A stretch of DNA of 64,000 nt, taken from IMG/VR virus record IMGVR_UViG_3300037258_000282, positions 64,001 through 128,000 of that record; one strand, given 5' to 3'. The notes beneath the pieces are model-generated. The model ran no database searches, was not told where the DNA came from, and saw nothing but the letters and a program-made list of their open reading frames with translations. Of this stretch, positions 11,882-14,897 are shown one piece after another. The stretch is from a virus. The position numbers were made by a program, and so were the translations under genes. Positions within the stretch are counted from its first letter, which is position 1, and each line of letters begins with the position of its first letter.

Positions 11882-12403
11882 CTAAGAGGTCGCGGTGTCA
11901 ACCTTAGTCTTCTTCTTGATCTTGCTCTTTTCCATCGTGCTCTCAAACGATCTTATCACCTCTTCATGAGATAAATTTCTAGACACTTCTCCAGAATTTA
12001 CCATGTCATTCAGCAAGGTAGTCTCGAAGTATTTATGCTTGACGTAGTTCTGCTTCTTCTCCTTCGAGATCCTCCTGATATACGCGTTCCAGGCGATCTT
12101 AGTAAAGTATGCGAACGGATTGTTAGTCTTATCTGGGTTAAAGTTATCGACCGCCGCGATGCAGTCTAAGATTCCATCTCCGACGAGATCGTAGGTGTAT
12201 CCCGCGAAGTTTCCCTTCTTAGATAAATTCGCACAGATGAGCATTATCGCCCTACCTATGTAGTCAGGAACGATGGGCCTAGACTTCTCTGTCGCGTCGG
12301 CCTCAGCGATCATCTTCCGGTATTTCACCATCGCGTCGTAGAGATCGCGATTATTGATGTAGTTTCTAGTCTTCTTCTTGACCTGAGTCTTGATCTGCTG
12401 CAA
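11882..12403 (-). CDS. 55: Late-transcription sigma factor gp55
   Basis: NYINN, PDYIG, NFAGYTY, NPFAYFTKIAWNAYIRRISKEKKQ; TTG start. Confidence 0.93.
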   Translation of the reverse strand: MQQIKTQVKKKTRNYINNRDLYDAMVKYRKMIAEADATEKSRPIVPDYIGRAIMLICANLSKKGNFAGYTYDLVGDGILDCIAAVDNFNPDKTNNPFAYFTKIAWNAYIRRISKEKKQNYVKHKYFETTLLNDMVNSGEVSRNLSHEEVIRSFESTMEKSKIKKKTKVDTATS

Positions 12404-12503
12404 TAGTTAACCCTCTCTTAAAAAAAGAAATACTTTATCCCACTTATACGTAGTAGTGTGATGAATTTGTCACAGTTTTTTCCAAAAAGTCAAAGTTTTG
12501 CTA

Positions 12504-12532
12504 TTGACAAATCTGAGGTTTGACGGTATAAT
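12504..12532 (+). promoter_or_regulatory. Perfect-consensus sigma70 promoter, antisense to flanking genes
   Basis: TTGACA(12504)-17 nt-TATAAT(12527) with A/T tracts upstream. Confidence 0.85.
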
Positions 12533-12533
12533 C

Positions 12534-12775
12534 GTCTCTTACTACAGAGAGACAAACGACGAATTACCACTGAGCCGAGGACGCCGAAGGCGGACTCACG
12601 GAGGGCGACTCCGCCCGACGTCGACTGAACCACTCTCACTGAGACCACTGCGACTACCTTACGATCAACGTCAGCCAAGATGTGGGCTCTTCTGTAAAGA
12701 GCCCCTAGCGGGGCCACTGGCGGATCCATTGAACACTGGAGGGCAGGCCCTCCAGGACGCCTTGCGGCGTCATAC
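12534..12775 (+). ncRNA. Putative structured non-coding element (ncRNA or origin primer RNA); functional strand uncertain
   Basis: GC-rich intergenic tract with at least 5 hairpins and five CACTG copies directly downstream of the consensus promoter. Confidence 0.5.
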
Positions 12776-12791
12776 CTGAGATCTTCTAGAA

Positions 12792-14243
12792 TCATATCGA
12801 GATATTATAGGTCTTAAATGGAAATTCTTCTGAAGCGTAGATCTTAAGTCTCTCGATCATGTGAAGGATGGTAAAATTCTTATGAGACTTCCACGATAGA
12901 TCGTCGGCGACGTCGTAGAGCTTCGCGTGACTCTTGGTATCGTGAAGCCTCAGCATCCTACCGATAGACTGAAGATTCTTGATCTTTCCCTTAGAAGGAG
13001 ACGCAAATATCACGTTGTGAAGCTTCTTAATATTAGTACCCGTCGAGAAAGTTCCATCAGACGCTACTATGATCGCGTCGTCTTCTGTCTCGATTATCTT
13101 ACGAATCTCATCTCTATCTAATCCATCTACCTCTCCGGATATATAGTAGACGTTCCTGTCACTACCTACTTCGTCTCGTATCATGTCATACAAGACCTTT
13201 CCATGCTTCTCCACGAAATGAAACATCACGAGAGTATTTCCCTTGAGTGATATAGCTAGATTCCTGATAAAGCAGTTTCTCTCTCTACACCTCACGAGAT
13301 GATCCATCTCCTCTGGATACTTCATCTTGAAGCAGGATTTTCTAACGTCATCTGAGTACTGAAGCACCAAGACCTTTATCTGAAGCTTAGATATCTTATC
13401 GTCATCCATAAGCTTCTTGGAGGTAGTCACTCGATAGGTAGGTCCAAATAGACCGTTTAGAACCATCTCATTACACTTGGTCCCATCAAGCGTTCCAGTA
13501 AAGCCGTACCTATACTTGACTTTAGTGCACTTCTCCATGATCCCAGTTATAGACTTAGCTTTCGCGAGATGAGCCTCATCGCCAACTACGCAAGAGAACT
13601 GATCGAACCACTCCTGCGGCATCTGAAATATACTCTGCCAGGTCGACACTATCACGTCACGATCAGTACTCTTATCGGCTCCAGCCATTATCTTATGACA
13701 GTAGTCCTCAGGAGCCCCATACTCAGTAAAATCTGACTCCATCTGATGCACGAGTTGAGTCGTCGGAACTATTATCAGCTTTCTTCCAGATACGTATCGA
13801 CATATGAGATATATCATCATCGACTTTCCAGATGCGGTTGGAGAGACGTAGAGCTCGCGCCTCTTCCTCACCGCCCTGACGAAAGTAGAGAACTGATAGT
13901 CGCGTAGCTCAAACTTCTCTGGAATCTTCAGCGTCTTGATGAAGTCCGCCGCCTCCTTTCCTGAGAATTGATCTTCAGTAAAGTCGGAAGACTTGTCGAA
14001 CTGATACCCACTCGACTTACAGAACTCTCCTATGGAATCTGCTAGCCCAGCGTATATCACGCACGTCATGGGGTTGAACAGGCGTATGCGCCCGTCCCAG
14101 ATTCCCCTCTTGTACAGGGGGGTGAACTTGTACCCCGGCACCATGAAGGAGAACGCGTCGCGAAGCTCGAATGCTGTAGATGGCTCGCAGTATATCTTCA
14201 AGTAGACCTCGTTGATCTTTACTATAGATACTACTTCTGTCAA
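12792..14243 (-). CDS. uvsW: UvsW SF2 helicase
   Basis: WDGRIRLF, SPTASGKS, GDEAH, GFTGT, QSIGRMLR; likely TTG start 14243. Confidence 0.95.
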   Translation of the reverse strand: MTEVVSIVKINEVYLKIYCEPSTAFELRDAFSFMVPGYKFTPLYKRGIWDGRIRLFNPMTCVIYAGLADSIGEFCKSSGYQFDKSSDFTEDQFSGKEAADFIKTLKIPEKFELRDYQFSTFVRAVRKRRELYVSPTASGKSMMIYLICRYVSGRKLIIVPTTQLVHQMESDFTEYGAPEDYCHKIMAGADKSTDRDVIVSTWQSIFQMPQEWFDQFSCVVGDEAHLAKAKSITGIMEKCTKVKYRYGFTGTLDGTKCNEMVLNGLFGPTYRVTTSKKLMDDDKISKLQIKVLVLQYSDDVRKSCFKMKYPEEMDHLVRCRERNCFIRNLAISLKGNTLVMFHFVEKHGKVLYDMIRDEVGSDRNVYYISGEVDGLDRDEIRKIIETEDDAIIVASDGTFSTGTNIKKLHNVIFASPSKGKIKNLQSIGRMLRLHDTKSHAKLYDVADDLSWKSHKNFTILHMIERLKIYASEEFPFKTYNISI

Positions 14244-14244
14244 C

Positions 14245-14436
14245 TCATTCCTTCCACGTAAACTTATATGGCAACTCGCTGGGTCCAACCGCCGTGTTGT
14301 ACTTCTCGCAGTACTTATTTCTGCATCTCTTATAATATAAGTGAATCATCCTCGAATAGTCTATCTCGTGAGAGATCTTATAACTCGTGTTGCACGTTGG
14401 GCAATTAGACTCCCGCGCGAAATTTTTCATATTCAA
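14245..14436 (-). CDS. Small hypothetical protein, possible zinc ribbon
   Basis: CPTC...CRNKYC; fills the uvsY-uvsW gap. Confidence 0.45.
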   Translation of the reverse strand: MNMKNFARESNCPTCNTSYKISHEIDYSRMIHLYYKRCRNKYCEKYNTAVGPSELPYKFTWKE

Positions 14437-14839
14437 TAAAGTTCCTTATATTCCACCCGCGCTCTCTGAAGGTCTTTATTATCGAGTCGAGAGCCGAGAT
14501 CTTCTCCTGCTGAATTCCGATCTTGAATGAGAGAGCCATGATATCTGGATCAGCGTCCATATACATCGGTAGGTCCGACTTAAGTATCATACCCTTAGGA
14601 GGCAGCTTCCAACCCTTGGATAGCGTCTCCTGAGTGTGGCCCTGAGTGTAGAACTCATGCTTAGCCAGCTTCAACTCAGCGTACTCATACTCTAGAACGC
14701 GGACGCGCATCTTCTCCCCGACGTACATAGAGTAATATTTGTGATGAAGCTTAGCTATTCCCAGAGAGGACTCACCGAGGTTGGTCCTGTCTATCTCGGA
14801 GTCCTTACTCCAATTTTCCATTATGTCGTCTATAGTCAT
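14405..14839 (-). CDS. uvsY: Recombination mediator UvsY
   Basis: WSKDSEID, IAKLHHKY, RGWNIRNFIEYEKFRAG; synteny. Confidence 0.9.
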   Translation of the reverse strand: MTIDDIMENWSKDSEIDRTNLGESSLGIAKLHHKYYSMYVGEKMRVRVLEYEYAELKLAKHEFYTQGHTQETLSKGWKLPPKGMILKSDLPMYMDADPDIMALSFKIGIQQEKISALDSIIKTFRERGWNIRNFIEYEKFRAGV

Positions 14840-14868: not shown

Positions 14869-14897
14869 ACTCTATCATGAGTTTAGGTATATGTCAA
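14869..14897 (-). promoter_or_regulatory. sigma70-type promoter for uvsY
   Basis: TTGACA-17 nt-TAGAGT on - strand. Confidence 0.55.

Follow-up and report, generated by a model that had tools for sequence, protein, structure and literature searches.

A conserved antisense promoter and a structured non-coding element between uvsW and gp55 of a T4-like virus

Sponge RNAs such as CsrB and RsmZ expose copies of a GGA motif between their stems, and the ~550-nt RNA II of ColE1 forms its hybrid through a G-rich segment. In T4-like phages that lack MotA and AsiA, namely cyanophages, pelagiphages and their freshwater kin, the timing of late transcription and of UvsW action is, to our knowledge, poorly understood. 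Priming by a transcript is established for ColE1, and in T4 itself oriE depends on an early promoter, oriF and oriG depend on a promoter-primed R-loop, and UvsW is the helicase that removes the origin R-loops (PMC3016281). Non-coding antisense RNA has been detected experimentally in cyanophage S-PM2, where CfrI, of ~225 nt, is antisense to protein genes at a locus comprising psbA and a homing-endonuclease gene (PMC2984593).

Here, we describe the gap that separates uvsW from gp55 in an uncultured T4-like phage, represented by an IMG/VR virus record of 152.6 kb (49.7% G+C). The gap is located in the window, by which we mean the whole 64,000-nt stretch of DNA that was analysed. As at T4 ori(uvsY)/oriF and ori(34)/oriG, a promoter lies near uvsY and uvsW whose transcript need not encode anything, but here it has the plain sigma70 consensus, the downstream DNA is G+C-rich and hairpin-forming, and there is no skew signal. 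Like CfrI, the predicted product is a non-coding antisense RNA of ~225-250 nt, and the two phages are T4-like members of one broad group. However, CfrI comes from another locus than uvsW/gp55 and was detected whereas the window RNA is predicted, and blastn against 50,697 phage records gives no sequence relation between CfrI and the element. A strong promoter facing a weaker one (at 14897) with no terminator between them is also the arrangement of convergent-promoter and cis-antisense interference systems, although both transcripts are predicted here and those systems are not known to include an inserted structured leader. Several copies of a short motif in a structured RNA recall CsrB and RsmZ, but the motif is CCACUG instead of GGA, three of the five copies are clearly unpaired, and there is neither an Rfam match nor a known partner protein. 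Like ColE1 RNA II, the predicted transcript is promoter-driven, multi-hairpin and non-coding; it differs from RNA II in that it would not be G-rich, and the locus gave no origin signal.

An antisense promoter upstream of gp55

The window carries a series of - strand genes identified by Pfam, comprising gp46, gp47, gp55 (11882-12403), uvsW (12792-14288) and uvsY (14405-14839). The uvsW helicase gene, with matches to UvsW_N, ResIII, DEAD and Helicase_C, ends in a stop codon at 12792-12794. The late sigma factor gene gp55 (Sigma70_r2) is read from a TTG at 12403 that is preceded by GAGAGGG at a distance of 7 nt, and alignments with its homologues begin at residue 2-14. The public gene call for gp55 (149 aa) starts later than that and, like the public call for UvsW (450 aa), is shorter than homology suggests (173 and ~498 aa, respectively). 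The two genes are separated by 388 nt (12404-12791). This was originally taken for the largest non-coding gap in the window, which does not hold, as a crude map of open reading frames of at least 80 aa leaves other ORF-free stretches of 280-510 nt, and the gap itself contains a 101-codon open frame on the - strand that is not coding-like. Next to gp55 lies an A+T-rich spacer (12404-12503; 31-36% G+C) with an inverted copy of the -35 box, ATTTGTCA, at 12465-12472. No well-spaced sigma70 promoter for gp55 itself was found in this spacer, the best match being GTGACA-19-TATAAG.

Behind the spacer, on the + strand, is a sigma70-type promoter that matches the consensus at 12 of 12 positions (TTGACA-17-TATAAT, 12504-12532; -35 at 12504-12509, -10 at 12527-12532), with a predicted transcription start at ~12539-12541. 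The perfect promoter of the original prediction is thus real, opposed to the gene flow and with no + strand gene behind it. Across the whole genome and both strands there are only two such 12/12 sites, against ~0.05 expected; the second (G000:C1:20505-20533, - strand) is outside the window and inside a 332-aa coding region. Just after the -10, an inverted repeat GTCTCT-N8-AGAGAC (12534-12553) straddles the predicted start and is the positional analogue of the palindromes, such as CACTAGTG, that follow the -10 in relatives.

The promoter is conserved. Related loci were oriented with gp55 on the + strand, and the gap upstream of gp55 was scanned for a promoter in antisense direction. At least 10 of the 12 consensus positions are matched in 21 of 25 loci, and all 12 in six, compared with 0 of 19 control intergenic gaps from the same loci that reach 10/12 in antisense orientation. 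The cultured phages P-SSM2 (TTGACA-17-TACAAT) and HTVC008M (TTGACA-17-TATAAT) have the promoter antisense at gp55, and Melnitz is a further cultured relative that carries it. Among freshwater metagenome loci from JGI (80 fetched, 49 with a measurable gap), nearly all carry TT[GT]AC[TA]-16/17-TATAAT, in which TATAAT is nearly invariant though the spacers vary; their -35 lies ~10 nt from the gp55 start codon and the entire gap spans 50-67 nt. The promoter is present in most of ~100 related loci, marine and freshwater (L008-L040, L169-L254), and is directed into uvsW or a cargo gene.

Relatives also share a short palindrome, CAY(N2-4)RTG, in the first 12 nt after the -10 (39 of 48 distinct sequences, L175-L252, against 12.9 expected). 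It is frequently CACTAGTG, with CATTAATG and CAGTACTG as other examples; it overlaps the predicted start, its third base covaries with its partner, and it could serve as an operator or form a small hairpin. The antisense promoter belongs to a conserved and apparently undescribed architecture. A literature search found no paper uniting uvsW, antisense transcription and cyanophages; it did not cover the main Syn9 transcriptome study, so a prior description is possible. A consensus host promoter that sits at one spot in ~100 diverged genomes, back-to-back with the late sigma gene, and is aimed at uvsW is a testable candidate for a timer, and its conserved position suggests a role in timing.

A structured non-coding insertion in the uvsW-gp55 slot

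In most relatives the uvsW stop is 14-28 nt away from the -10; in this phage the distance is 259 nt. Comparison with the related loci marks the ~250-nt body as inserted sequence. It forms an island of 54-63% G+C behind the promoter with flanks of 32-47%, and 12540-12790 is the G+C-richest stretch of the neighbourhood.

The slot between uvsW and gp55 is generally plastic. In L002-L034, L039, L040 and L172 it holds a conserved protein of 130-280 aa (annotated as 'methylamine utilization protein' in P-SSM2), in one case a 2OG-Fe(II) oxygenase, or nothing, and the cargo gene is coupled to uvsW in the manner that the 101-codon open frame of the window, with its ATGA overlap, would be if it were translated. 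We considered the body as a remnant of such a cargo gene, but neither the slot protein nor the 2OG-Fe(II) oxygenase gives a tblastn signal in the gap or in the whole genome. Extra non-coding sequence is found in the slots of L035 (84 nt), L169 (102 nt) and L253, in which a 387-nt gap contains CACTAGTG palindromes.

The body is non-coding. Its 101-codon open frame, P0001 (12490-12795, - strand), overlaps the uvsW stop by ATGA and was judged not to be a gene. Scored by the phage's own codon usage it reaches -0.12, compared with 0.31 +/- 0.16 for real genes, and all six frames are in the non-coding range (-0.17 to 0.0). Frames are open on both strands of the body, as expected in G+C-rich DNA. The P0001 protein has no Pfam match, and a search of 5.8 billion proteins left it a singleton. 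Known RNA families were not found either: with Rfam 15 at E-values up to 10 the best hit to the element is the S15 leader (13 bits, E = 6), nothing in the whole window reaches a gathering score, and ARAGORN reports no tRNA or tmRNA in the element.

The element is also an orphan specific to this lineage. Blastn of the element against the 50,697 phage records and against a sample of plasmids returned nothing, exact and degenerate patterns of the element had no match in IMG/VR or JGI metagenomes, and blastn plus nhmmer against ~120 related loci gave no homologue. BLAST against five genomes matched by tmRNA tag, among them an Ensifer genome with a similar tag, and against a sample of 401 genomes from the order to which that Ensifer genome belongs, yielded no more than matches of 17-42 nt at chance level. 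The phage as a whole stands apart, with the nearest gp55 61% identical and the nearest C-terminal half of UvsW 64%. Within its own genome the element is single-copy, it has no terminal inverted or direct repeats, and possible RNA targets elsewhere in the genome are limited to 12-nt complementary matches at chance level.

The body folds better than chance, with z-scores against shuffles of -3.4 on the + strand and -2.8 on the - strand. All five hairpins of the original prediction are found where it had placed them. In + strand RNA, H1 is GAG-GA-CGCC-GAA-GGCG-GA-CUC (12577-12597, with the CGCC-GAA-GGCG core at 12582-92) and contains a tandem G.A internal loop, and H2 is ACG-GA-GGGCG-ACUC-CGCCC-GA-CGU (12598-12621, with the core GGGCG-ACTC-CGCCC in DNA at 12603-16) and has an H1-like design. 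Their stabilities are -10.8 kcal/mol on + against -7.2 on - for H1 and -14.1 against -11.2 for H2; an alternative pairing of 12589-97 with 12607-15 is incompatible with both. A weakly structured C-rich core follows (12622-12683; C 34%, G 18%), which carries ACCACUC, UCACUG and ACCACUG and has unpaired probabilities of 0.54-0.74 per 10-nt bin in the + RNA. Beyond the core are H4 (GGGCUCUU-CUGUA-AAGAGCCC, 12684-12704; as DNA GGGCTCTT/AAGAGCCC), H5 (GCCCC-UAGC-GGGGC, 12701-12714), which competes with H4, H6 (CUGGAGGG-CAGG-CCCUCCAG, 12736-55; as DNA CTGGAGGGC/GCCCTCCAG) and H7 (GACGCC-UUGC-GGCGUC, 12756-71; as DNA GACGCC-TTGC-GGCGTC). H6 and H7 (12735-12771) sit in a three-way junction that extends to ~12788, and 12718-12790 folds at -32.1 kcal/mol. 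There is no U-tract after H6/H7, and no intrinsic terminator (a G+C-rich stem plus U-tract) on either strand of 12404-12791.

The CACTG repeats at 12568, 12637, 12646, 12715 and 12734 were likewise confirmed. All are on the + strand, four of the five are in CCACT context, and the reverse complement CAGTG is absent from the element. Copies 1-3 are mostly unpaired in the + RNA ensemble, whereas their complements are paired on the - strand. With five copies per 250 nt (all within 170 nt), no other part of the genome is as dense in CACTG: the runner-up has three, and the genome rate is 0.65 per kb. Allowing for any 5-mer, the enrichment has P ~0.03 by dinucleotide shuffles and is genuine yet moderate. 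The 69/9/69 spacing of the copies raised the possibility of an internal tandem duplication, which was rejected given that the 78-nt units align no better than shuffles.

A comparable, independent element is present in the closest UvsW relative, L173 (metagenome contig Ga0395741_0000563). It is 274 nt long (L173:3965-4238, - strand of the locus), occupies the equivalent slot downstream of the antisense promoter, is non-coding and strongly folded (z = -4.4 and -5.2), and is likewise rich in one short motif. It differs from the window element in having 30-38% G+C and CTAG(A) rather than CACTG as its motif, with 8 copies of CTAG against 1.6 expected (an enrichment also given as ninefold); it also holds CCACTAG and TCACTG. 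L173 and L035 have the first ~80 nt beyond the promoter in common (z 3.8, P 0.007). The 5' part of the window element shows a weak likeness to L173 (AGAGARACAAAC) and to L169 (CCGAAGGC...CGRAGGG) that is not significant (P 0.12-0.14). In a MAFFT alignment of the window, L173, L169 and L035 even the promoters fail to align, and the pairwise similarity of the window is non-significant. This phage and L173 indicate that the promoter spot can also house sizeable structured elements, which are putative RNAs.

Transcription against uvsW and competing readings

The + strand is favoured as the functional strand by the promoter, the stability of H1-H3, the A>T skew, and the orientation and accessibility of the motif. 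H1, H2 and H3 are 3-4 kcal/mol stabler on + than on -, owing to tandem G.A and G.U pairs, and the A>T skew of the body on + resembles that of sense strands of this phage. The promoter is opposite uvsW and faces its 3' end, and no terminator-like site occurs on the + strand before ~14798. Upstream of uvsY, on the - strand, is a second sigma70-like promoter, TTGACA-17-TAGAGT with TG (14869-14897), which faces the + promoter over 2.4 kb with no canonical terminator between them on either strand. Some observations point away from the + strand alone: the - strand would be transcribed too if uvsW transcripts read on, and the overall fold is equally good. Furthermore, the inverted repeat at 12534-12553 would not be whole in the + RNA, and there is no U-tract terminator at the end of that RNA, although the tmRNA gene of the phage uses one.

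Our preferred reading, to which we assign a probability of about 45%, is that the element gives rise to an early structured antisense RNA or forms the leader of such an RNA, with transcription converging on the uvsY-uvsW-gp55 unit. Of the original prediction, an antisense RNA against uvsW stays plausible: the promoter aimed at uvsW stands and its counterpart in ~100 loci lends indirect support, whereas the transcript itself is a prediction. Host sigma70 would read the + promoter early, as it would the counterparts in the rest of the family, from most of which transcription would directly enter the 3' end of uvsW or that of a cargo gene. Here, the promoter could yield either a free-standing RNA of ~235-250 nt or a longer transcript, antisense to uvsW, of which the body would be the 5' leader. 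The hairpins towards the ends (H1/H2 and H4-H7) might protect this RNA, and the open C-rich core with its CCACU(G) repeats, which is like a Rho loading region, may serve as an entry point for Rho or another partner, whereas the 3' hairpins could mark a site of RNA trimming. Transcription and RNA together would oppose transcripts from the uvsY promoter and thereby influence the timing of uvsW expression and of read-through into gp55.

A wider form of the antisense-RNA reading, which we regard as speculative and unlikely to hold in full, is that the early backward promoter with its palindrome is an undescribed control point shared by cyanophage, pelagiphage and freshwater T4-likes. This phage, L173 and perhaps L253 would then have expanded it into 250-300-nt motif-array RNAs that titrate or bind a factor of a switch, either from early to late expression or from origin-dependent to recombination-dependent replication. 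The family-wide promoter is a more testable lead than the window's own element, the function of which is inferred.

The element might instead act on the sense (-) strand, as a long structured 3' UTR of uvsW mRNA or as a barrier between uvsW and gp55. Its hairpins would then block 3' exonucleases or make read-through into gp55 slower, and the + promoter would be no more than a conserved neighbour. The element is co-directional with the operon, its overall minimum free energy is lower on the - strand (-101 against -92 kcal/mol on +; z = -2.8), H4-H7 are strand-neutral, and L169 and L035 have small hairpins directly after the stop of the upstream gene. Read-through would also matter in this phage, given that no sigma70 promoter was found for gp55. 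We nevertheless consider a sense-strand role unlikely, because a U-tract terminator is absent on the - strand too, H1-H3 are weaker there, the complement of the motif is mostly paired and lacks any strand logic on -, and 14-28 nt suffice at this place in most relatives.

Rather less probable is a selfish or neutral insertion, that is, foreign G+C-rich DNA that entered a plastic slot and has no function of its own. Such an origin would fit the differing cargo of relatives, a G+C content 10-15 points above that of the flanks and the orphan status of the element in all searches. However, MITE, IS-derived and REP-like elements have features that were not seen here: the element is present in one copy, has no terminal inverted or direct repeats, and is absent from the 401 sampled genomes of the Ensifer genome's order and from the sampled plasmids. 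Structure and motif density above chance, and the analogous structured element in L173, further argue against DNA without a function.

It is doubtful that the repeats act at the DNA level, as an array of protein sites. In that case the CACTG copies would be half-sites akin to the CACTAGTG-type palindrome and would bind a regulator of the antisense promoter, either to keep it in place or to titrate it. The CAY(N2-4)RTG palindrome in 39 of 48 relatives (12.9 expected), the CACTAGTG palindromes of L253, the CCACTAG, TCACTG and eight CTAG of L173, and the densest CACTG cluster of the genome are consistent with such an array. Conversely, CACTG is not palindromic and every copy points in one direction, the link to CACTAGTG is an after-the-fact resemblance, no candidate binding protein was identified, and the corrected P is only 0.03.

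A replication origin, as originally proposed, is very unlikely. In such an origin, either a persistent R-loop would arise from the promoter transcript or primase would be drawn in by the hairpins and CTG, with UvsW removing the structure afterwards as at T4 oriF and oriG. A gene-less promoter adjoining uvsW and uvsY would suit such an origin, and so would the A+T-rich DNA behind the same promoter in relatives, to which an origin reading may apply. In this phage, the T4-type R-loop origin is weakened by the G+C-rich downstream DNA and by the lack of a GC-skew inflection. The 250 nt behind the promoter have 54-63% G+C and no A+T-rich unwinding element, the RNA would be slightly C-rich rather than G-rich (GC skew -0.06), and cumulative GC skew turns at 88-90 kb of the genome and not at the element (76.5 kb). 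Set against oriF and oriG, the promoter is there (12/12, of early type rather than a MotA middle promoter) and the unwinding element is not. G4-type single-strand initiation sites combine hairpins on SSB-coated DNA with a primase start triplet, and DnaG of the E. coli type recognises CTG. Hairpins and CTG triplets are present in the element; they would be candidate priming signals if the primase of this phage also started at CTG.

That P0001 is a gene for a small protein of 101 aa on the - strand is hardly credible, because the ATGA overlap with the uvsW stop, which the cargo genes of relatives also have, is outweighed by non-coding codon usage in all six frames, the singleton status and missing Pfam match of the protein, its lack of similarity to cargo proteins of relatives, and an opposite strand that is open as well.

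Host signal and a small frame near uvsY

An alpha-type two-piece tmRNA gene (RF01849, 82.5 bits) is located at G000:C1:135355-135642 on the - strand, 7.4 kb past the end of the window, and has the tag ANDNFACEARLAA and a canonical terminator. This tmRNA points to an alphaproteobacterial host. A closer host assignment from the tmRNA was attempted and abandoned, as the tag family ANDN[FY]AEARLAA occurs across Hyphomicrobiales and other Alphaproteobacteria and there is no close tmRNA match.

A Cys-rich frame of 63 codons (CPTC...C...C; window 14245-14436, - strand) runs in a different frame across the interval between uvsY and uvsW, bridging the stop of the former and the start of the latter. The N-terminus of UvsW from a relative is weakly similar to the end of this frame (E 1.2), which could be a small gene or reflect either a frameshift or an alternative uvsW start.
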